This document shows, one piece after another, positions 8,023 to 24,271 of a stretch of DNA of 64,000 bases. The DNA is from an uncultured bacterium. GTDB lineage: Bacteria > Patescibacteriota > Minisyncoccia > Phycocordibacterales > Phycocordibacteraceae. The position numbers and the translations under genes were made by a program. The stretch is from the NCBI GenBank assembly GCA_947085985.1, contig CAMTYL010000003.1, positions 137,239 to 201,238 on the forward strand, given 5' to 3'. The notes below the pieces were generated by a model, which was not told where the DNA came from, searched no databases, and worked only from the letters and a program-made list of their open reading frames with translations. How positions within the stretch are numbered: the stretch's first letter is position 1; the number at the start of each line of letters is the position of its first letter.

Positions 8023-8349
8023 TCAGGCGGCTTCGGAAATAGCCGCACTTGCCGCAGCACCGGCGTCCTCCAGGAACTGGTCGGTGATGACCTTGAGCAG
8101 ACCGATCATGAGTAGTCGCTGGACCGGTTCTTCGTCGGCCATCTCTTGCACCAGTCTCACGGTGATCGTGAACAGCCCCGAGACGTCGAAGCTGTGGGTC
8201 AGCGTCTGGCGCTTGAACCCGAGTTCGTTGGTGAGGCAGATAATCAGCCCCTGCTGTTCGGCGAGTTTGAGCGGCCCGTTCTGAGCCGCCAAGTGTTCAA
8301 GGATGCGTTCGATGCTCGGCTCGTACGCGGCCTCAAGTTTTTCAGCCAT
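8023..8349 (-). CDS. Hypothetical small protein (108 aa) in a GC-elevated insert
   Basis: ORF with protein-like composition and local GC clearly above the flanks. No recognisable motif. Confidence 0.3.
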   Translation of the reverse strand: MAEKLEAAYEPSIERILEHLAAQNGPLKLAEQQGLIICLTNELGFKRQTLTHSFDVSGLFTITVRLVQEMADEEPVQRLLMIGLLKVITDQFLEDAGAAASAAISEAA

Positions 8350-8422
8350 TGGTGCCTCCCATTTCGTGTTGCCGGCGCGGCAACCCTGTGGCGATAGTAC
8401 AACCTTGTACTAATTGCGCAAT

Positions 8423-10205: not shown

Positions 10206-10766
10206 CTAGGCGGCCGCCACTTTCAGCGGCAGTTGACGTTGAGCGTCTTCCGCGTGGACTTCGTGGTCGGGCTCGGGGGTGTGCTCGATCGCGACGATGG
10301 TCGCGTCGTAGCTCTTGCCGCCGAGTTTGATCGTGAGATCGTCGCCGACGCGCTTGCCCACCAGGGCGGCGCCCAGAGGAGTTTCGTAGAAGATGACCCG
10401 TACACCCTGTTGGATGTAGAGTTGGGGCTCGTCTTCCCCGCCGACGACGTACTTCAGGGTTTTGGTTTCCCCCTCCTCGTCGTCGTACTCCAGCGTGACC
10501 ATGCGGTCCACGCAGGTCTTGTCGATCTCGGGCGAGACCATGGCCTGCACGTGCGAGGCGATGAACATGTTCAGGCGTGTCAGCGAAATGCTGCCCGTAG
10601 CCTCGGCGAGCAAGGTGTCATACAGTTCCCCCTTCTCGCCGTTTTTCACTGAGTTATTCCCCGTGCCGGTGAACGAGTTCATCGGCTCGCAGAGCGTGCT
10701 CTTCAGCAGGCTCCGCATGGTTTGGGCGGCCTTCATGCCGTTTCTTGTACAAACTTTCATGGACAC
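10206..10766 (-). CDS. greA: GreA-family transcript cleavage factor
   Basis: C-terminal ...LKYVVGGEDEPQLYIQQGVRVIFYETPLGAALVGKRVGDDLTIKLGGKSYDATIVAIEH matches the GreA C-terminal domain. The N-terminal coiled-coil-like half is more divergent. Confidence 0.6.
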   Translation of the reverse strand: MSMKVCTRNGMKAAQTMRSLLKSTLCEPMNSFTGTGNNSVKNGEKGELYDTLLAEATGSISLTRLNMFIASHVQAMVSPEIDKTCVDRMVTLEYDDEEGETKTLKYVVGGEDEPQLYIQQGVRVIFYETPLGAALVGKRVGDDLTIKLGGKSYDATIVAIEHTPEPDHEVHAEDAQRQLPLKVAAA

Positions 10767-10844
10767 TATATGTCCCCCTATTTCAATGATGAATGCGGCC
10801 GGTTGGCCGCATAAGTATCATACGACTAAAAATGTAAAACGCAA

Positions 10845-10871
10845 GGGCGAGCACGCTACACGTGCTCGCCC
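10845..10871 (-). terminator. Rho-independent terminator after the ClpX-ZBD gene
   Basis: gggcgagcacg-ctaca-cgtgctcgccc stem-loop. On the minus strand it is followed by ttgcgttttacattttt. Confidence 0.55.
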
Positions 10872-10880
10872 TGTGATGCC

Positions 10881-11462
10881 CTACTCGGCGTCGTCGCCTT
10901 TCGCTCTCAGCTGGGTCTCCACAGCCAGCTCCGGACCGGGGTCTTCACGCGGTTCGGGTGCAGGAAGCTCGGCCAGCTCGCCGCTCTTGGTGGTGGTGCC
11001 GAGGCGCAGAGCTTGAAGTTCGCTCTGTAGACCTTGGGTGTCCTCGTCAAACGCCCTTTGAACCGCGGTTCGTCGCTCTTCAATGAGAGTCTCGAGCTCC
11101 TTGATACGGGCGCGCACAGGAGCCGCGGTGTTGATGCGGTCCGAGGCGTTCGTCAGAATACTGCGCAAAAGCGCAGTGACGCTGACCGTTTCCCCGTCCG
11201 TAACGTACCCGCCCTCGGTCAGGATAGCCTCCACCGATTCCCCCTGCTCCTCGGCGAGCTTGTCCCAGATGTAGCCAGGAATCTTAGCGTTGAGGTCGAG
11301 AGTGCCAGTCGCCTGAATCTCTTCCTTGATGATTTCTTCGCAGAGGACGACGCACTCATCGCAGATGTTGACTGTGGGTCCGGCGATCAACTTGCGGACT
11401 TCGTGTTGGCTCTTACTGCAGAAAGAGCAGTACAAGGTAGTTCTGGCTTTGGCGTCGCTCAT
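10881..11462 (-). CDS. ClpX-type C4 zinc-binding domain protein with no AAA+ module
   Basis: N-terminus [37 protein letters not shown] is a near-consensus ClpX ZBD. The remaining ~140 aa is acidic/coiled-coil-like and has no Walker motifs. Confidence 0.6.
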
Positions 11463-11481
11463 GACGACATCCTCCATGACA

Positions 11482-13727
11482 TTACAATGAAACAAAAGGG
11501 CTCACCTTGTGTGAGCAACCAGTGGCAACCATACAAGCAGAATCGCTTAGTGTCTGCTGTCTAGCTTGGAGGGCTGCCAGTTGCGCGAGAAGTGCGGCAA
11601 GCTTAGCCTGCATGTCTGCCATAGATGGCGTAGGAGATACTGTCGCCACGGGCGTACCAGTCTGACCCTGATTCAGCAGTGCTCTGGTTTGTGGACCCGC
11701 TCTTCCGACTGACTGGAGTCCGCGCGCAGCCTGGAAAGCTGAAACAGCGCTTGCCGTGAGGGGGCCAAAGTAGCCTGTGATTGGCCCTGTATAAAATCCA
11801 AGAGAAGTGAGGGTGCGCTGTAACTCGGTCACGTCAGTTCCGGTGCTACCTACCGAAAGATCGCGAGCAAAGGTGTATGTCGCTGCACCAAGTACGCGCG
11901 GAGCCTCCTGTACCGCGGTAAGTGGTCGCGCAACAGATACAGGAGTCGTTGCACGGGTGATGGTTGAACTACCTCCCCCTCCACCACCACGAGACGATGA
12001 TGAACCTCCACCCCCGCCCCCTCCACCACCTCCCCCACTACTTACGACAGGTGCAGAGACTATAACGTTGCGCTCCGTTGTTGTTGCGATATTCCCCGCC
12101 GTGTCTGTCGCGTTATACAGGAGGGTGTATATGTTAGCAGCACTTGTATTCACATTACCTACTCCCATTATCGTGGTGGTCGCGTCTGTGTTATCGGTCA
12201 CGGTAGCGCCCGGGTCGGTGAACACGTCCCCGACGGTGAGATGCATGGGATTGCTACCAATGAGGGTGATGATGGGTGGTTCTGTGTCGGTGACTATTGG
12301 GGTGGTCGTTGCAACTACTGAGACAAGTGCATTGTATGCGTTGAGACGCTTTCCTGAGACGGTTTTTCCAGAAAGCGTTTCAAGCTCATCCCCGCTGTCC
12401 ATAAGTGCGGCTTTCACTTGTGCTGCACTGAGTGACGGATCATACGACCACAGCAGTGCCGCTACTCCCGAAACATAGGGGGCTGACATGGAAGTGCCAG
12501 TCTTATAGCTGTACCCGCCTAGCGGAATGGTGCTCCGGATGTTTGAGCCAGGAGCAGCTAAGTCCACACTCGTTGTTCCATAGTTGGAATAAGAGGTGAG
12601 GGAGTCAAAAGCGTCGGTCGCAGCAACACTTATGATGGCTGGCAAATCATAGCTTGCGGGGTACACCGGGTTTTCGGGGGCATCTAGATCTCTGCCGCCA
12701 TTACCCGCAGAAGCGACAAACAAGCCGCCCGAATTTTGGAATCGCTCTATAGCATCGTATTCAGCTTGCGAAAAACTGTCGCCTCCGAAGCTCGCGTTAA
12801 TAATCTTTGCGCCGTTTGCTATGGCAAAATCTATGGCTCGTATCTCGGTCACAGTATCAAGAGCAAAACGAAGCGCCATAATCTTTGCTCCATATGCAAT
12901 ACCAACCACACCCACGTCGTCATGCACTGCAGCAATAATGCCGGATACGTGTGTGCCGTGCGCGCTCGTGCTGTCGGTTGTGGTAGCGCGTGGGTCGCTG
13001 GTGCTGTATTCAAAGTCGTATCCGTGTATGCAGCTCCACGAAGTGGTGCCTGTCTCGCTCACGCAGGAACTTCCGTCCCACATGTTGTTCATGAGCTCTG
13101 GGTGCGTATAGTCAACGCCCGTATCAATCACAGCCACGGTTACGGCAGTCCCTGAAGCAATGTCCCATGCGGACAGTGCGTCAATATCAGCACCCAGGGT
13201 ACCCGTTATGCTGTTTACCGTCTGTCCTGTGTTGTAGAGTGCCCACGAGTTTGCAAGCTCCACACTCGTTGTCGCAAGCACCTCTACGGAGCGGATGTAG
13301 TTTGGCTCCGCATACTTCACTGCAGGGTTAGATTCAAGGTCAGCTATTGCTTGTGCCACTGATAACTGCGCAGTAGTTTTTACCACGGCCATGTTCATGC
13401 CGTGAATGATGTCAACAGTTTCCAAGGAAAGAGATTCCGTCACCGTTTCCGCCTTCTGCTGGTCTGCGTGGTCTGTCAGGTCTATACGGGATTCCTTGTA
13501 TTTTACAATCACCTCACCCTCCACATAGGTGCCAGAGAGCGGCTCTATCTTCTCAATAGGTTCGGTGGACGGTTCCAATACAATAGTCAGTATCTCTGTT
13601 GGGCTCGCAACTGGCTCAGTGGAAGTCTCTACAACGAGCGTTTGTTCGGGTGCCTCCTGAGCAACTGCGAAAGTTGGTGCGCTACTAAGTAGCACAATGA
13701 GCATGAGGGCGAAAGCGCGTCGCATAG
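11482..13727 (-). CDS. Secreted subtilisin-like serine protease (S8) with a poly-Gly linker and a C-terminal peptidoglycan-binding domain
   Basis: Signal peptide [25 protein letters not shown]. Catalytic D (VAVIDTGVD), H (HGTHVSG) and S ([11 protein letters not shown]). [24 protein letters not shown] linker. PG_binding_1-like ...[33 protein letters not shown]. Confidence 0.85.
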
Positions 13728-16664: not shown

Positions 16665-16711
16665 GTTTCTGACTAGGACATTCACAGAACATTCAGATAA
16701 GGAGTCGATCA

Positions 16712-17371
16712 GTGACCGGTCAACCAGCCACGCACTACCCGGTTCACACGAGCCCCTGTGGCCGCGTGCAACTGGGCGCCATGAAGCGCGAGTACCTGGA
16801 CAAGTTCATCCCCTGGGCCAACAATCTCGAAACCACCGCCGGCCTGCGTCTCTCGGCGCCGATTACATACGAAGCCGAGGTGGAGTGGTATGAATCGCTC
16901 CCCAAGGCGCACAACCGGGAAGTCTTCGCCATCCTGGTGAAGGACGACCCGGTGGACAGTGAATATCAGTACGTGGGCCACACCGGCCTGCACAACATCC
17001 ACTTCCCCTCGGCACACGCGACCTCGGGCACCATCATTGGCGACCCGAAAGCGCGCGGACGTGGCATCGGCAAGATCGCAAAGCTTCTGCTGCTACAGCA
17101 TGCGTTCCGCTACACCGGTCTGCGTAAGGTGGTCTCGGACGTGAAGTCCTTCAACCTCGCCAGCATCGGTCACCTGGTCGCCTGTGGCTACAAGGTGGTG
17201 GGTGTGCAGAGGGATCACTTCTTCCACGAGGGAGCCTTTGTCGACAAAGTGCTTCTCGAAGTTCACCGCGCCGATTTCGAACCGATCTGGGAGAAGTACA
17301 AAAGGACCGGAAAGGTTCCGACGCTCTCCGACAAGCAGCGCAAGCGCATCGGCAAACTCCACCGCACGTAG
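16712..17371 (+). CDS. GNAT-family N-acetyltransferase (RimL/RimJ-like)
   Basis: Acetyl-CoA binding loop GDPKARGRGIGKIAKLLLLQHAFRYTGLRKV. High-GC (about 60%+) gene in a lower-GC context. Confidence 0.6.
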   Translation: MTGQPATHYPVHTSPCGRVQLGAMKREYLDKFIPWANNLETTAGLRLSAPITYEAEVEWYESLPKAHNREVFAILVKDDPVDSEYQYVGHTGLHNIHFPSAHATSGTIIGDPKARGRGIGKIAKLLLLQHAFRYTGLRKVVSDVKSFNLASIGHLVACGYKVVGVQRDHFFHEGAFVDKVLLEVHRADFEPIWEKYKRTGKVPTLSDKQRKRIGKLHRT

Positions 17372-17399: not shown

Positions 17400-17428
17400 A
17401 GCCACCCCACCCGGGGTGGCTTTCTTCT
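17400..17428. terminator. Bidirectional rho-independent terminator between the convergent GNAT and histidine-kinase genes
   Basis: agccacccc-accc-ggggtggct perfect stem followed by ttcttct. It lies between the GNAT stop (17371) and the HK stop (17427). Confidence 0.55.
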
Positions 17429-19076
17429 ATACCGGAAGCTCCACGATGAAGCGACTGCCCTTACCTTCGCCTTCTGATTCAGCCCAAACTCGGCCCTTGT
17501 GGGCCTCAATGATATTCTTCACGATGTAGAGACCAAATCCGGTTGACTCCACGTTAATCTTCTGCGAATTCTTACCATGCCCTCCTTCGGTAAACAGGTT
17601 CTTCATATCGTCGGTACCAATTCCCACACCGGTGTCAGTAATTTCAAAACGCACTGCTTTGTCAGTCTTTGCGAGCGATACGTTCACACTTCCCTTCGGT
17701 GTGTACTTGATGGAATTATCAATCAAGTTCTTGAAAGCGTTCACAAGCTGCCCCTTGTCGCCTGTGAAGGTGACTTGTTCAAGGGTGCTCGTTAGCGCCA
17801 GCGACTTCTTGTCAGCGTGAGGCTTTAGATCCGCCACTATGCCCTCAATAAGCTCCTTCATATCAATTGGGGTCATGGTGTAAGCCACCTTTCCGCTCTT
17901 TATGTTGGCGGCGTTTAGAATCTCGGCAATAGTCTCCGCTCCCTTGGTGTCTGAACGGAATCCTTCCTCAACCATCGGTAGCATCTGCGGAGGCACTGGC
18001 CCGTACTCTCCCTCCTTAATCATGGCGAAGATATTGCGCGACTTCGCCACAAATCCCTTAATCTGGTGCGTAATGAAGTGAATAAGTATCACTTGCTGCC
18101 GGTTTGATTCCTCGAGTTCATTTGCAAGGCGCTGAGTTTGAATCCTTTGCTCAATCTCGCGCTGCACGCTTTTAATGAGTAGGTAGCCAAAGCCAATTGC
18201 AAGCACGAGCGTAATGGCGTTCAGCACTTTATTGATCGGGTTTCGAATAAAGAAGAACTGCGAGCCAATCAATATAACCAGAGCGACTACAAGAGCCTGG
18301 GCCGCGATTAGCTTAATGTTGAACGCTTTGTACTTGACGATGATATACGTGAGTACGGCAATGAATATGGTCATCCCGAAGTACCCGTACTGTTCAAGAT
18401 TAAATGTGTCCGGCTCACTTCCAAAGAAATTAGCAATACTTGCCACGTATGTGCTCGCAGAGAACGTGACTAGGAACGCAGTGATCCCGAAGGTTGAAAG
18501 AAGATTCTGCTTACTCCCCCCATTATTCTTGCTTGCAAGCGATGCTCTAATTCCCAGGAGAGCCGTAAGAACAAGAATCACAAAAGATAATCCGAATACA
18601 ATGTTAAGCACCCAGATTCCTTCAACTGCACTACAGTTATACAAGTCAAATGCAGTGAGGTTGTAATGTGAAGCTGATAAAAATAGCACACCCGTTAACA
18701 GAGCTACACCTAACGCTTTAAAGGGAAAGCTCACGTCTCGCTTTGAAATAAATGCGTACAGGAAGTATGCACTCAGTACATAGGTAGTTATGAACAGAAA
18801 TAGCCAGAATGACCACAAAAACATCACAACTCGAGCGTCAACTTGAGTCCAAAGAAGAATATCAAGCACAGAAAGTGCTGAGAATATAAGGGAAATTGTT
18901 ACAAGTATGCGCGCCGGAAGTGTACGGTTGTTGAGAATGATAAAGAAACTAAGTACGAGCGATACAACGAGCGCCGTAAGGTGCGAGTAGTACACAAGAA
19001 CGGGCACGCCTTCAGAAAAAAGACCGAACTGAAGTCCTTGGTAAATGGTCGTAGATAGTTCGTCGTAGCAGAACAT
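17427..19076 (-). CDS. Sensor histidine kinase with a multi-TM N-terminal sensor domain
   Basis: At least 6 TM helices. HisKA H-box (ILIHFITHQIKGF). HATPase_c G-boxes (DTGVGIG..., GTGFGLYIVKNIIEAHKGRVW). Confidence 0.75.
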   Translation of the reverse strand: MFCYDELSTTIYQGLQFGLFSEGVPVLVYYSHLTALVVSLVLSFFIILNNRTLPARILVTISLIFSALSVLDILLWTQVDARVVMFLWSFWLFLFITTYVLSAYFLYAFISKRDVSFPFKALGVALLTGVLFLSASHYNLTAFDLYNCSAVEGIWVLNIVFGLSFVILVLTALLGIRASLASKNNGGSKQNLLSTFGITAFLVTFSASTYVASIANFFGSEPDTFNLEQYGYFGMTIFIAVLTYIIVKYKAFNIKLIAAQALVVALVILIGSQFFFIRNPINKVLNAITLVLAIGFGYLLIKSVQREIEQRIQTQRLANELEESNRQQVILIHFITHQIKGFVAKSRNIFAMIKEGEYGPVPPQMLPMVEEGFRSDTKGAETIAEILNAANIKSGKVAYTMTPIDMKELIEGIVADLKPHADKKSLALTSTLEQVTFTGDKGQLVNAFKNLIDNSIKYTPKGSVNVSLAKTDKAVRFEITDTGVGIGTDDMKNLFTEGGHGKNSQKINVESTGFGLYIVKNIIEAHKGRVWAESEGEGKGSRFIVELPV

Positions 19077-19086
19077 AGTATGTGAA

Positions 19087-19623
19087 TTAATCAGCGTTAT
19101 TGCGGATCAAGTCCTCTACATATCGAGAGAAATACCCAGCATATTTTTCACGAATTTCCGGAAGCTTCCAATCAGAACCTGTTATGTTGCCTCGACACGA
19201 GGTAGTTCCGCATAAACATGGCATAGGTTCCCATAGCTCCTCTGCTCGCTCTACGTCAGTCATGGCGTAGTCAAAAGTAATTTGCTCCCCTGCAGCAATG
19301 TCACGCAGTGCAACCATCGATATCTGCCCACGGAAACCACAGGTTGGCTCACATGAGTGATTTACATTGAAAACGCCGTCCGCTATTTCACGCACAGGTT
19401 CTATTGGGCATATATATTGATTACGTTCAACTTGGAAACAGTGATACCCGTAGGGCTCGTATTGAGGCAGGTCTAATTCAGGTGACGCAAGAATGCGGCC
19501 TCCTTGTACAATAACCAGGTCATTCTTCGGTATTGGATCCTTGGTGAAGGTTCCAATACCGATTCCTGGAACGTCCCGGAATTCTAGTGAGGGGTGCACC
19601 CAAGAGTATGTAGTCATTTTCAT
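19087..19623 (-). CDS. SET-domain protein (putative lysine methyltransferase)
   Basis: NHSCEPTC (NHSCxPN), EQITFDYA (ELTFDY) and a post-SET Cys cluster (CLCGTTSCRG). Confidence 0.65.
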   Translation of the reverse strand: MKMTTYSWVHPSLEFRDVPGIGIGTFTKDPIPKNDLVIVQGGRILASPELDLPQYEPYGYHCFQVERNQYICPIEPVREIADGVFNVNHSCEPTCGFRGQISMVALRDIAAGEQITFDYAMTDVERAEELWEPMPCLCGTTSCRGNITGSDWKLPEIREKYAGYFSRYVEDLIRNNAD

Positions 19624-19633
19624 AAGCCAATAG

Positions 19634-20032
19634 TTATTCAGTAATCTCTTCAGCAGAGGGTTCGCTCGTCTCTGACATTGGCTCATAAACACAAATTTCT
19701 CCCTCTTCCAGGGTGTCTTCGGAACAGAGAGTTAGTACACAATCTGGCTCGTTTACCTCGCAGGTAAGAGCAGGACACTGATCCAGTAGGTAGTTAGGAC
19801 ACAGGGTAATATACGCTGCGCTCTTCTCAATTCGCTTGTAGGGCTCTGTGTCGCACTCAGCATCTATAGGGTCGCAGTCTTGCACAAAGCATGATTCTGC
19901 AGAAGGGTCGCATGGAACATGATCAGTGATTAAAAAATTCCGCTCTAAAAAGTACACGGAGTACTTCCACGCAACTGCACTTACAAGAAGCGCAATAAAC
20001 ACAAACAAAAGCCACTTAGAGTTCTTTTTCAC
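19634..20032 (-). CDS. Small membrane-anchored Cys-rich acidic protein (hypothetical)
   Basis: N-terminal TM/signal (KWLLFVFIALLVSAVAW). 14 Cys in about 100 residues, with an acidic tail. Confidence 0.35.
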   Translation of the reverse strand: MKKNSKWLLFVFIALLVSAVAWKYSVYFLERNFLITDHVPCDPSAESCFVQDCDPIDAECDTEPYKRIEKSAAYITLCPNYLLDQCPALTCEVNEPDCVLTLCSEDTLEEGEICVYEPMSETSEPSAEEITE

Positions 20033-20129
20033 GTACTACTATTGTAGCCCACGCCATGCGCCGATTTCTACACTACTCCACAGACGCAAAAAGGGCCGCT
20101 GGTGAATACCAGCGGCCCCGCCATGATGG

Positions 20130-20759
20130 CTAGAGAAAGGACGCGAGTTGCTGAAGCAGAGCTTCAAGCCACTCGATTGTGTGGACAACCCACTGCCACT
20201 CGGGCTGGGTGAGACAGGTCTCGCCAGCGCACCCAGCCAGACGCTCGAACCAGTGGGTTGCGTAGGTCAACGTGAGCCAGTACAGCGCAGTCCAGACACC
20301 CACCCCCCACAATACCGACGGAATCATCACGCGAAAGACGACCGACAGCCGCCCCTCACCCTTCTTGCGAAGGAATAGGGTGACGTAGTCACATTCCAGG
20401 TAAACGACACTGCCGATAAGCATCATGGTCCAGTACGAGTGGCTCAAGAAGCGCAGAAGCGCCTTGGTCGTCATGGTCATGATACGGCCGACCCAGGACC
20501 CCTTGCGGGAAGTGGGCTCGAACGCCCACTTCTTGAGGTCGTCCACGCCGGTGATGTCGAACCCGCGCTTTGACGTCTGCAGATGGAGTTCAAGTACCCC
20601 CAAACTGAAGACAAACGAGAGGCCGACGCCTACGGCGAAAGCGTGGAGCGGACCCCACTTAATGAGGCAGATGATGATGGCCGCATCAATGAGTTTGTCC
20701 AAAAAGGACAGAAAGCGCTCAACGGTGAGCGCGCTCGCAATTCGAGCTTCGTTTCGCAC
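20130..20759 (-). CDS. Hypothetical polytopic membrane protein (high-GC gene)
   Basis: About 5 predicted TM segments. GC is clearly higher than the flanks. No motif assignment. Confidence 0.35.
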   Translation of the reverse strand: MRNEARIASALTVERFLSFLDKLIDAAIIICLIKWGPLHAFAVGVGLSFVFSLGVLELHLQTSKRGFDITGVDDLKKWAFEPTSRKGSWVGRIMTMTTKALLRFLSHSYWTMMLIGSVVYLECDYVTLFLRKKGEGRLSVVFRVMIPSVLWGVGVWTALYWLTLTYATHWFERLAGCAGETCLTQPEWQWVVHTIEWLEALLQQLASFL

Positions 20760-20845
20760 CGGAGTCTCCTTTCCTTTCTATGGGAGCGCACAGAGCAACT
20801 ACCTGTATATATTATACAGGTACAGCGTAATTTGTCAAGTATTTA

Positions 20846-21940
20846 CTACCCTTTCGCAGAGCCGTATATGAAAACGTTCTCTTCAAGGAAGCTTGGAATA
20901 AACTCCTTTTTCTCTGTCACATTCTGGAGATGCTTCTTGAACAAGGGCATAAGCACGTCGTACGTAGTGATTAGTGGAGCCTTTGCCTTTGGTACTCCCG
21001 CCTGAGAGCTCATCCAGCCGTCTTCCTTGAGAATAGGCACCGCAAGACGCATAAGCTCGTCATAGAATGCCGAAAGTCGAGTGAGGGCCTTACCGCTTCC
21101 TACAGGTTCATCGGTGAGGTCTATGATGATGCCGTCAAACTTCATGCAACGGTCCTTTGCCATGCGTAGGTACTGCATCGCGTCGCCCACGGACACCATG
21201 ACGTTCGGGTTACCGAACAATTTGTTCTGGTCAAAGTAGGTGCGAGCGCAGTAGATAACTTCCAGATCAAGCTCGGCAATAGTGATGCGAGCATTCGGGT
21301 TCTTCTCTAGTACTTTAGCCGCAACAAATCCGTCTCCTCCACCGAGAATAAGAATCTCTTTATCAGTAGGACGAAGCTCTTTGGTAATCGCTTCATCATA
21401 GATGTGCGTGTCACTCACTGACACCTGGGTGATGCCGTCAATAAGCATGGTCTTTCCAAACTTCTCCAAATCAAGCACCTGAATTTCCTGGAACGGACTC
21501 TTAATCTCTGCAAGTTTACGATGGACTGTTACGGTCTGCTTGGTGTTGTCCTTGTAAATAGGAATAGTGATGGTCTTTAGTTCAGCATAGCCACGATCAA
21601 CATCGTGAATCTTCTTGCGGGTGTGAGCCAGATGCTTTACCACGTGCTCAACAGCTAGATAGGTTTGCGATTCATTGGAACAGCTAAATACGTCAAACGC
21701 GGCGTAGCCATACTCGGGCCATGTGTGTACAGAAATGTGGGAGGTAGAAAGGACCAATACTCCCGTTACGCCGTGGGGCTCAAATTTATGGAAATGCGAG
21801 TGGAGAATCTCCATTTTGGCAGCATGCGCTGCACCCTCTAGAAGCTTCTTAAGCTCCGCCGCGTCGTCTAGGTCGTGGTAGTCACACCCGTATAGGTCAA
21901 ACAAATAGTGTTTTCCCTTGATTTTCTTAACTTTAATCAT
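20846..21940 (-). CDS. Fusion of S-adenosylmethionine decarboxylase proenzyme (SpeH-type) and spermidine synthase (SpeE)
   Basis: N-terminal GKHYLFDLYGC...GVTGVLVLSTSHISVHTWPEYGYAAFDVFSC is AdoMetDC with the self-cleavage Ser. The C-terminus has the spermidine synthase fold (ILILGGGDGF, ...ITIAELD...). Confidence 0.7.
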   Translation of the reverse strand: MIKVKKIKGKHYLFDLYGCDYHDLDDAAELKKLLEGAAHAAKMEILHSHFHKFEPHGVTGVLVLSTSHISVHTWPEYGYAAFDVFSCSNESQTYLAVEHVVKHLAHTRKKIHDVDRGYAELKTITIPIYKDNTKQTVTVHRKLAEIKSPFQEIQVLDLEKFGKTMLIDGITQVSVSDTHIYDEAITKELRPTDKEILILGGGDGFVAAKVLEKNPNARITIAELDLEVIYCARTYFDQNKLFGNPNVMVSVGDAMQYLRMAKDRCMKFDGIIIDLTDEPVGSGKALTRLSAFYDELMRLAVPILKEDGWMSSQAGVPKAKAPLITTYDVLMPLFKKHLQNVTEKKEFIPSFLEENVFIYGSAKG

Positions 21941-23311: not shown

Positions 23312-24271
23312 CTACGCGCTCAGCTCACTTATTGCTCTTAGTGAGTCACGTTGCTCCGTGGGGAGTACGTTGCCAAGCACGTTGTTAAGAAGTGTAATTA
23401 CCCCTTGTGGAGGTTCAAGTGGATCGATGCACAGTACATATCCTTTTGGGCACCGGGCGATTTGTATCGATTTGGCCCGTTCGGAACCAAAAGCCCAGGT
23501 GACCATTTCGCGAAAGTTTTTTTCCACAAACCAGTGTGAGAGGAAGAAACCGTCACGGTTTGGATCTTGTCCTACAACCCTGATTGCACCAGTGCTATCA
23601 CTCGCGAGACAGGTGCCGAGAACCTTCTGAACCGTCTCCTGCCACAGCGGAGAAGGATGTGTGTGGAGAACAGCTCCAACACCAAGGTCGCGATACGTTC
23701 CAGCATTTAGGCTAACGGCGTCAAAGTTGAACTGCGACCCCAGCACCTTTCCATTCTTGAGATACTCATCGATACCGCTACCGTTGTGTCCATCCTCCTC
23801 GTATCGGCTTATAAGTGCTTGCGCACGGTATACGCCAATAATGACCCGGCGTGGTGCCTTAGGAATAAGCGAGACAGCTTGGAGGATCGATCCAGAAATC
23901 ACGTCGACTTCCACCCCTTGTTTCTGATAGTGGCTGAGCGAGAATTCCTTCGCGTACTGTGTCATAACCTTCGAGAGATCATTGAAGATCACGCGCTCAA
24001 CCGAGCGCCCCTCTGCGTGTAGAACATCAGTAACTACGCGTGGATCACGACAACCGTTAGCGCCACCAAGCGTGATAACGTCCCGAGCGACATAACCAGA
24101 GGCTGCGTAATTCTTGCAGAACTCTGTGACGGCATTGAGTTCGCCCTGATTGTCCTTTGTCATTGGCGCCTTCTGATATCCGGGCGCTTGTCTGTCCCAA
24201 AATACTACCTGACCCTCTGTGGTAAGGGTAGGAATAGGGAGCCAGCCTGAGTCGTTTTGGTTCTGCGTCAT
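23312..24271 (-). CDS. Hypothetical protein, possibly a Rossmann-fold SAM-dependent methyltransferase
   Basis: VITLGGANGCRD (motif I-like) followed by ERVIFNDLS (acidic post-I). Weak; 319 aa. Confidence 0.3.
   Translation of the reverse strand: MTQNQNDSGWLPIPTLTTEGQVVFWDRQAPGYQKAPMTKDNQGELNAVTEFCKNYAASGYVARDVITLGGANGCRDPRVVTDVLHAEGRSVERVIFNDLSKVMTQYAKEFSLSHYQKQGVEVDVISGSILQAVSLIPKAPRRVIIGVYRAQALISRYEEDGHNGSGIDEYLKNGKVLGSQFNFDAVSLNAGTYRDLGVGAVLHTHPSPLWQETVQKVLGTCLASDSTGAIRVVGQDPNRDGFFLSHWFVEKNFREMVTWAFGSERAKSIQIARCPKGYVLCIDPLEPPQGVITLLNNVLGNVLPTEQRDSLRAISELSA

Follow-up and report, generated by a model that had tools for sequence, protein, structure and literature searches.

A stand-alone SET-domain protein encoded beside a sensor kinase and near a polyamine-synthesis gene in a Patescibacteriota genome

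What does a SET-domain protein methylate in a bacterium that has no histones? We asked this about a gene lying in a 64,000-nucleotide stretch of DNA (the window hereafter; assembly GCA_947085985.1, contig CAMTYL010000003.1, positions 137,239 to 201,238) from an uncultured bacterium of the Patescibacteriota. An earlier inspection of the letters, referred to here as the sequence-only reading, had recognised a bacterial SET-domain protein in this gene; it had regarded such enzymes as sporadic in bacteria and as often directed at host histones in intracellular or symbiotic lineages, or at nucleoid proteins in free-living ones. With moderate confidence, we read the product as an endogenous protein-lysine N-methyltransferase, that is, a cytoplasmic and catalytically competent stand-alone SET fold. 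The gene context points to a sensor kinase and to polyamine genes rather than to a nucleoid-protein target, and the repeated linkage to both suggests that the target of the SET protein may not be a histone-like protein.

The SET gene is read on the minus strand from an ATG at 19623 to a stop codon at 19087-19089. The mechanical open reading frame opens further upstream, at a GTG at 19692. This extension runs into the upstream gene, and even a relative as close as P0001 (98% identical) does not conserve it; more distant homologues lack it, opening instead at the M..SW position of the family alignment. The limits 19087-19623 given by the sequence-only reading are therefore retained as the best gene model. 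The Pfam SET profile (PF00856) scores 47 bits over residues 22-119 (E=3.9e-12), where 22.4 is the gathering cut-off; the match takes in positions 1-104 of the 105 in the profile and greatly exceeds what chance would give. NHSCEPTC, ITFDY and the post-SET CxCxxxxC, the signatures on which the first recognition of the domain had rested, are all present. In a residue-level alignment G22xG24, N88-H89, F117-D-Y119 and the post-SET cysteines face their counterparts in yeast SET1 and human MLL1. We take the N-H pair of NHSCEPTC to bind S-adenosylmethionine (SAM) and its Cys to be the predicted fourth zinc ligand; Tyr119 of ITFDY is presumably catalytic and Phe117 would occupy, by alignment, the Phe/Tyr-switch position. 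Across a family alignment (A1) of 23 diverse homologues, 27-88% identical, 13 columns are invariant (G42, N88, H89, S90, C91, P93, G96, D118, Y119, C136, C138, C143 and R144), and all four members of the predicted zinc-ligand set, C91, C136, C138 and C143, are among them. The SAM-binding NH and the Tyr, whose loss on proper alignment would have spoken against a SET assignment, are therefore in place in the MLL1/SET1 alignment and unvarying in the family.

Beyond the post-SET motif the protein continues into a tail; conservation in the same alignment reaches at least 90% at D151, W152, Y161, G163 and F165. When the tail alone was compared with PDB sequences, 0 matches were returned, and on sequence grounds we take this conserved segment of about 30 residues as the hallmark of the subfamily. 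No hydrophobic N-terminus, signal peptide or transmembrane-like segment was found in the protein (maximum 19-residue Kyte-Doolittle mean 0.58); the look for a secretion signal thus came back empty, and the protein is predicted to be soluble and cytoplasmic.

An AlphaFold2 model built from the family alignment (mean predicted local distance difference test, pLDDT, 84; predicted template-modelling score 0.81) shows the expected beta-clip and pseudoknot of a SET fold, and its tail helices 155-160 and 167-176 reach pLDDT values of 92-95. Foldseek comparison of this model with the PDB returned MLL1, ASH1L, NSD and SETD2 at E about 1e-9, and the family profile matches MLL1 at E=9e-24. Every sequence and fold feature of PF00856 is found in the protein, and its nearest relatives of known structure are SET domains of the KMT2/SET1 type, so that the assignment made from sequence, and the match to MLL1/SET1, were borne out. 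The GxG, NHSCEP, (F/Y)DY and CxCxxxxC motifs and the zinc site are common to the window protein and to SET1/MLL (KMT2) and ASH1L (PDB 6chg, 7u5v, 2w5z, 4ynm). In contrast to these enzymes, the window protein is a stand-alone polypeptide of 178 residues that lacks the WRAD partner-binding elements and the chromatin-reader domains; it carries the conserved tail (DW...Y.GYFS), which has no PDB counterpart, and it belongs to an organism without histones.

A known small-molecule enzyme limits what can be concluded from the fold. Free methionine is S-methylated by BurB (PDB 9l4t/9l4v; PMC12542666), a stand-alone SET enzyme of 172 aa from Burkholderia thailandensis. It resembles the window protein in size and in being a stand-alone bacterial SET protein, and in the structure comparison it is as close to it as MLL1 or any other lysine methyltransferase. 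At the sequence level BurB aligns only over the C-terminal half, namely residues 83-150 with the profile (E=1.2e-14) or 88-151 with the single sequence (E=1e-6), and it is outscored by KMT2 proteins, which align over the full length. Judged by sequence, the window protein is not a close relative of BurB. Moreover, it retains the full lysine-methyltransferase motif set, and its gene belongs to no pathway like the dimethylsulfoniopropionate/malleicyprol pathway in which BurB sits. The BurB precedent means that fold and sequence establish a SET methyltransferase, and that they do not alone establish a protein substrate.

The preference for a protein substrate draws on the prokaryotic enzymes already characterised. 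In a 2014 review, every characterised prokaryotic SET enzyme treated there methylates proteins (Go1-SET on MC1-alpha, BaSET, NUE, LegAS4). The role that we propose for the window protein is of the kind played by Go1-SET of Methanosarcina mazei, whose substrate MC1-alpha is an endogenous DNA-binding protein. Go1-SET, cpnSET/NUE of Chlamydia, BaSET, LegAS4/RomA and BtSET are all prokaryotic SET-domain enzymes, as is the window protein, but most of the characterised ones are secreted pathogen effectors acting on host histones, and in this they differ from it. LegAS4 is only 14% identical to the window protein; the others were compared by description.

On this basis a course of catalysis may be proposed. 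By analogy with known SET enzymology, SAM would be held by G22xG24, N88-H89 and the pseudoknot region, while a Zn(Cys)4 site formed by C91, C136, C138 and C143 would lock the post-SET segment above a narrow channel. A lysine side chain, whose primary amine ends a chain of four carbons, would thread this channel to reach the methyl group and Tyr119, near which the amine would be deprotonated and positioned. Phe117 at the switch position may allow more than one methyl transfer. The likeliest class of substrate would be a lysine in one of the Saccharibacteria cell's own proteins, and not a host histone. The enzyme would be expressed as the product of the middle gene of a unit that also encodes a Cys-rich exoprotein and an orphan multi-transmembrane histidine kinase, and this position makes it probable that its activity is coupled to membrane signalling through this module and to the neighbouring gene for polyamine synthesis.

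The supposed rarity of such enzymes in bacteria did not survive a wider search. A single-sequence search gave 108 homologues of 30-98% identity, a profile search at least 5,231 clusters at 90% identity, and an exhaustive HMMER scan 690 representatives of the subfamily at 50% identity (E<=1e-30). Among GTDB species-representative genomes, relatives were confirmed at no fewer than 587 sites out of at least 599 pattern matches (587 of the 599 listed); those listed belong to Chloroflexota, Actinomycetota, Patescibacteria, Myxococcota, Bdellovibrionota, Spirochaetota and methanogens, and DPANN archaeal members occur among the SET protein matches. The SET family is very large, and the window protein is one ordinary member of it. 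Many of its homologues carry the automatic NCBI name 'SET domain-containing protein-lysine N-methyltransferase'. The best genome match among those listed is a Candidatus Saccharibacteria metagenome-assembled genome (MAG), with 98% protein identity, and close metagenomic copies of the locus come from Hainich groundwater assemblies.

Some members of the subfamily have unusual architectures (P0311-P0326, P0315, P0338 and P0357 in the scan set). Many are tandem SET-SET proteins of about 350 aa, and in a few, about 1,400 aa long, SET is repeated eight times; of these long proteins, P0315 is a gene model from a eukaryotic alga, Mesostigma. Fusions of SET to a class-I methyltransferase, LPG_synthase_C, a Kdo transferase, MFS or ABC_membrane were set aside as weak, each forming clusters of 1-2 sequences and several being eukaryotic gene models. 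In these singletons the LPG_synthase_C domain is MprF-like and the Kdo transferase example is from an oomycete.

We then considered the surroundings of the gene (Table 1). The sequence-only reading had placed it next to a sensor histidine kinase and a small Cys-rich anchored protein, and this description proved accurate (549 and 132 aa, respectively). On the minus strand the order is an S-adenosylmethionine decarboxylase-spermidine synthase (AdoMetDC-SpdS) fusion, a 209-aa membrane protein, the Cys-rich protein, the SET protein and the histidine kinase. The 10-nt gaps on either side of the SET gene, together with a promoter-like site and a terminator bracketing the 209-aa gene, indicate, as far as consensus scans can tell, that the Cys-rich, SET and kinase genes form one transcription unit separate from the AdoMetDC-SpdS gene.

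Table 1. Features of the SET locus in the window. The spans of NHSCEPTC and ITFDY were checked base by base; that of the post-SET motif was computed from the residue numbers of the translation.
Feature	Position	Strand	Description
SET-domain methyltransferase gene	19087..19623	-	178 aa, stop codon included
GxG (G22-I-G24), N-terminal SAM-binding motif	19552..19560	-	Aligned to HGRG of MLL1; G22 and G24 at least 90% conserved
NHSCEPTC, residues 88-95	19339..19362	-	Read from sequence; aligned to NHSCEPNC of MLL1
ITFDY, residues 115-119	19267..19281	-	Read from sequence; aligned to LTYDY of MLL1/SET1
Post-SET CxCxxxxC (C136-L-C138-GTTS-C143)	19195..19218	-	Followed by invariant R144; aligned to PCLCGAPSCKG of SET1
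C-terminal tail, residues 147-178	19090..19185	-	Two predicted helices; consensus ITGxDWKLPELQxKYxGYFSxY
Sensor histidine kinase gene	17427..19076	-	549 aa; HATPase_c E=1.6e-24; 10 nt downstream of SET
Cys-rich membrane-anchored protein gene	19634..20032	-	132 aa, 10 Cys; one N-terminal hydrophobic/transmembrane segment; 10 nt upstream of SET
Multi-transmembrane membrane protein gene	20130..20759	-	209 aa; between AdoMetDC-SpdS and Cys-rich genes
AdoMetDC-SpdS fusion gene	20846..21940	-	364 aa; PF02675 E=3.5e-36; PF01564 E=1.6e-22; 1.2 kb upstream of SET
Promoter-like site TTGACA-16-TATAAT	20811-20838	-	12/12; upstream of 209-aa gene; sigma-70 consensus scan only
Terminator, 12-bp stem	20092-20119	-	Downstream of 209-aa gene; sequence scan only
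Weak promoter-like site	20041..20070	-	9/12; upstream of Cys-rich gene; candidate start of CysRich-SET-HK (histidine kinase) unit; consensus scan only
GC-rich hairpin	17400..17421	+	Between convergent kinase and GNAT genes; candidate terminator for both

The kinase has an N-terminal domain with about 8-9 transmembrane-like segments, and its translation contains an H-box (FITHQIKG) and the N, G1 and G2 boxes; HATPase_c was its only Pfam match, with no sensor or HisKA domain detected by Pfam. When CheY and PhoB were searched against all open reading frames of the window, no receiver domain or response regulator was found in the 64 kb, which makes the kinase an orphan in the window. The Cys-rich protein gave no match to Pfam, NCBIfam or PADLOC models, and the 209-aa membrane protein none to NCBIfam models. 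The surroundings are otherwise of a housekeeping type, with tRNA synthetases and no secretion genes nearby. The only RNA element that a Rfam scan of the window returned is one tRNA, hence no riboswitch or other RNA element is tied to the locus. A role in defence was also considered and dropped, PADLOC having given nothing beyond a generic HATPase match.

Further features of the locus may be recorded here. The AdoMetDC-SpdS fusion also matches PF17284, has STSH in place of the usual ESH in the region of the processing site, and is kept in all close relatives of the window lineage. A 319-aa protein at 23312-24271 on the minus strand has no Pfam match. By its consensus-scan promoter and terminator, the 209-aa gene resembles an insulated, highly expressed monocistron amid a conserved block. 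Third-position GC is very uneven across the window (0.39-0.79): it is 0.70-0.79 in a handful of short genes, including that of the 209-aa protein and the GNAT gene adjoining the kinase, and 0.39-0.53 in the CysRich-SET-HK unit and in the 28-37 kb region. The stretches tied to this unevenness are 8026-8409, 10209-11501, 16673-17368 and 20133-20777.

The five genes stay together in relatives that belong to the candidate phyla radiation (CPR), down to a SET identity of 52%. The whole set was found at 97-98% identity (L001-L004, L100), 71% (L101), 64% (L005, L006), 59-60% (L094, L102), 58% (L095) and 52% (L103), and the 209-aa membrane gene is co-conserved with SET in all of these loci (L001-L006, L094, L095, L100-L103). 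The most distant of them, L103, has a different order: AdoMetDC-SpdS is preceded, at 3 bp, by the Cys-rich gene, and 2.7 kb downstream comes a second group made up of the membrane, SET and kinase genes. Despite such reshuffling, AdoMetDC-SpdS stays within 0.8-3.3 kb of SET in the window clade, and SET and the kinase remain adjacent in L005, L094, L095 and L101-L103 (52-71% SET identity). In L001, which is 98% identical, the five-gene block is retained and the flanks are rearranged with respect to the window; upstream, thymidylate synthase and kinase take the place of the tryptophanyl-tRNA synthetase, and the genes preceding the tyrosyl-tRNA synthetase downstream also differ.

The pairing of SET with the kinase extends beyond the window clade. 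An orthologue of the multi-transmembrane kinase (35-41% identity along its full length) lies at or near SET in L039, L058 and L079, which form a clade of the SET neighbour-joining tree separate from that of the window. The two genes overlap at their stop and start codons in L039 (Moraniibacteriota), the order in L058 is SET-CysRich-HK, and in L079 (Saccharibacteria) the kinase is about 2 kb from SET on the opposite strand. In two Peribacteria loci (L013, L021) a kinase stands divergently beside SET. Homologues of the Cys-rich protein adjoin SET and the kinase in L058 and lie near them in L039 and L101-L103; in several CPR lineages this family adjoins either SET and the kinase or AdoMetDC-SpdS. 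The CPR or DPANN loci L007, L091, L066, L068 and L096 showed none of this neighbourhood. That the five genes remain near one another even where their order has changed suggests that the SET protein, the polyamine enzyme, the kinase and the two membrane or exo-proteins are functionally linked, although the CPR neighbourhood may also be synteny by descent.

Polyamine genes accompany the SET subfamily elsewhere too, and in some cases covalently. A search seeded with P0077 showed that in Leptospirales an N-terminal SET domain of the same subfamily, tail included, is fused to a C-terminal domain of the AdoMet_dc family. More than 70 clusters at 90% identity have this architecture, from Leptonema illini, Leptospiraceae MAGs, other Spirochaetia and several species of Leptospira. 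The SET domain of these fusions (P0195 of Leptonema illini, P0262 of Leptospira alexanderi) is 35-39% identical to the window protein, including the Y.GYFS tail. They thus share with the window a link to AdoMet decarboxylase, made covalently rather than by neighbourhood, and unlike the window SET gene they have no histidine kinase linked to them. In a second alignment (A2), fusions of the Leptonema type retain NHSC, (F/V/I)DY and CxCxxxxC, whereas those of the genus Leptospira (P0252, P0262, P0263, P0270) have lost NHSC, read FHP in place of FDY and show a deletion of the post-SET Cys cluster. In three Leptonema or Leptospiraceae loci (L008-L010) a canonical 143-aa AdoMet_dc gene lies directly upstream of the fusion. 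The AdoMet_dc-like domain of the Leptospira fusions is itself atypical, with ETS(L/C)xSxHFAN against xESHxxxHTWPE. In NCBI the fusions are named 'S-adenosylmethionine decarboxylase' and are uncharacterised.

Other linkages involve transport and synthesis operons. In 13 Anaerolineae genomes SET closes a ydcS-potA-potB-potC operon, on the same strand and after gaps of 54-516 bp; the PotA-like ATPase passes the cut-off of the 'polyamine ABC transporter' model TIGR01187 (382 against 355.6 bits), the permeases are nearest PotB and PotC, and the binding protein is nearest YdcS. A Myxococcales MAG (L049, 1574-7869) has overlapping genes for a GNAT protein, AdoMetDC-SpdS, a FemAB-like Acetyltransf_6 protein, SET, a flavin amine oxidase and an ATP-grasp protein. 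The amine oxidase, which adjoins SET, is of the LSD1/polyamine oxidase type (PF01593, E=9e-46), and the AdoMetDC-SpdS fusion, at 475 aa, is longer than that of the window; the operon as a whole resembles a pathway for a modified polyamine or a polyamine conjugate. In L093, SET abuts genes for spermidine synthase and an ornithine/arginine decarboxylase. The polyamine-linked cases fall into four separate clades of the neighbour-joining tree.

How general is this association? A SET-AdoMetDC neighbourhood common to the family as a whole was rejected. AdoMetDC or SpdS lies within 10 kb of SET in 2 of 80 GTDB loci, one of them of the same lineage as the window, leaving 78 without; about 60 further, more distant metagenome loci gave 0 cases of AdoMetDC or SpdS by SET, and several long contigs carrying SET show unrelated neighbours. 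These counts make the SET-AdoMetDC link clade-restricted and not universal. The association of the SET subfamily with polyamine genes is recurrent but clade-restricted.

A parallel may be drawn with diatoms. According to Michael 2011, quoted in PMC3820600, AdoMetDC-aminopropyltransferase fusions occur in these algae and some of them also contain a histone-methyltransferase domain; Nemoto 2020, cited in PMC11151724 and PMC11554505, deals with SET proteins specific to diatoms. In the passages concerned, such domains are proposed, without testing, to methylate long-chain polyamines (PMC3820600, PMC11151724, PMC11554505). As those passages describe them, the diatom systems share with the window an AdoMetDC-aminopropyltransferase fusion and a SET-type methyltransferase, and differ from it in being eukaryotic and tied to silica deposition; the comparison is one of descriptions, and not of sequences. 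The literature that we searched held no paper linking SET domains to CPR/Patescibacteria or to the Leptospira AdoMetDC fusion.

These associations have to be set against a protein-lysine substrate. None of the neighbours of SET is an obvious methylation target; most family members have unrelated neighbours; NCBIfam holds no specific or dedicated model that recognises the protein; and the strongest context signals in the family come from small-molecule polyamine enzymes and importers, which is unusual for a protein-modifying enzyme. All of this weighs against the interpretation that we favour. One may therefore ask whether the enzyme is instead an N-methyltransferase of polyamines or of similar lysine-like small amines. 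In that case putrescine, spermidine or a related amine produced by the AdoMetDC-spermidine synthase next door would enter the channel with its aminobutyl or aminopropyl end, to be methylated by SAM at the terminal nitrogen. We hold this to be possible, though rather less than an even chance. To a channel of this kind a lysine side chain is chemically equivalent to the aminobutyl end of putrescine or spermidine, and BurB, structurally as close as MLL1, is a stand-alone SET enzyme of nearly the same length acting on a small molecule. As for a pathway setting like that of BurB, the operon partners in the window are the kinase and the Cys-rich protein, with AdoMetDC-SpdS 1.2 kb away, and among relatives there are polyamine operons or fusions: an intact SET domain of the subfamily fused to an AdoMet_dc-family domain across Leptospirales, the Pot-type operon of Anaerolineae, the Myxococcales operon, the neighbours in L093, and AdoMetDC-SpdS near SET in the window clade down to 52% identity despite reshuffling. 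That the linked cases lie in four separate clades also argues for a polyamine substrate, as does the diatom proposal. However, the promoter-like site and terminator part AdoMetDC-SpdS from the SET operon in the window, nearly all of the GTDB loci and all of the metagenome loci counted lack AdoMetDC or SpdS nearby, the Anaerolineae cases form one clade and may represent a single event, and the adjacency counts have no formal background rate to be read against. N-methylated polyamines have to our knowledge not been reported from these bacterial groups, and there is no biochemical precedent for a SET enzyme acting on a polyamine. The broader claim, that the whole tail-bearing prokaryotic SET subfamily consists of polyamine N-methyltransferases or polyamine-pathway components and not of protein methyltransferases, is likewise tentative, and we would sooner doubt it than accept it.

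Within a protein-lysine substrate, a more specific possibility is that SET serves the kinase pathway and methylates a lysine of the histidine kinase, of its unlinked response regulator or of a partner, thereby tuning signalling in a manner loosely like that of CheR. The tight packing (10-nt gaps in the window, overlapping stop and start codons in L039), the orthologous kinase by SET in L039 and L058 and about 2 kb off in L079, in a separate SET clade, and the orphan state of the kinase are all consistent with it. Nevertheless, this evidence is purely contextual, the family has no link to this kinase in lineages other than CPR, and conserved adjacency in genomes as compact as those of CPR can be inherited synteny. 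SET enzymes are not known to methylate lysines of two-component proteins; we regard a role in the kinase pathway as unlikely. A non-catalytic SET domain, binding only SAM or an amine in a regulatory or scaffolding role, is more improbable still. The degenerate SET domain retained in the genus Leptospira fusions indicates that the fold can serve a non-catalytic role in the family, but the window protein keeps all catalytic and zinc-binding residues, invariant across the stand-alone family. We give least credence to a secreted effector that would methylate host histones or host nucleoid proteins. Pathogen SET proteins such as NUE, RomA/LegAS4 and BaSET act in this way, and Saccharibacteria are described as episymbionts of other bacteria, living attached to host cells. 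The bacterial hosts of Saccharibacteria, however, have no histones, so that the host-histone target put forward in the sequence-only reading does not suit the organism of the best genome match, and the window protein has no signal peptide, transmembrane segment or extra targeting domain. With no hydrophobic segment and a histone-free host, the effector reading is unsupported. Close homologues are, moreover, widespread in lineages not known as symbionts (Chloroflexota, Actinomycetota, Myxococcales, methanogens), and the neighbourhood is of the housekeeping type, with tRNA synthetases and no secretion genes near. The window protein thus lacks what marks nucleomodulins of the NUE, RomA/LegAS4 and BaSET type, namely an export signal, nearby secretion genes and a suitable host.

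Altogether, the gene itself is ordinary: it adds a further member to a very large family whose proteins are already labelled SET protein-lysine methyltransferases by automatic pipelines; what is new is the pattern of its context, which is suggestive and unproven. If the protein substrate that we favour is the true one, the conserved SET-kinase operon would suggest that lysine methylation takes part in the signalling of ultra-small symbionts. If a polyamine is the substrate, no SET enzyme before it would have been shown to use one, and it would offer a model in bacteria for the methylated long-chain polyamines that have been proposed for diatoms. The Leptospirales that carry the SET-AdoMet_dc fusion include culturable and pathogenic species. 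With a polyamine substrate, CPR bacteria of the Saccharibacteria type would possess a five-gene module for polyamines and sensing, made up of AdoMetDC-SpdS, the SET enzyme, two membrane or exo-proteins and an orphan sensor kinase. Such a finding would also be relevant to how the eukaryotic machinery of lysine methylation arose. The 'eraser' LSD1 is a homologue of polyamine oxidases, and a lysine-methylation 'writer' would, like it, be rooted in polyamine metabolism.

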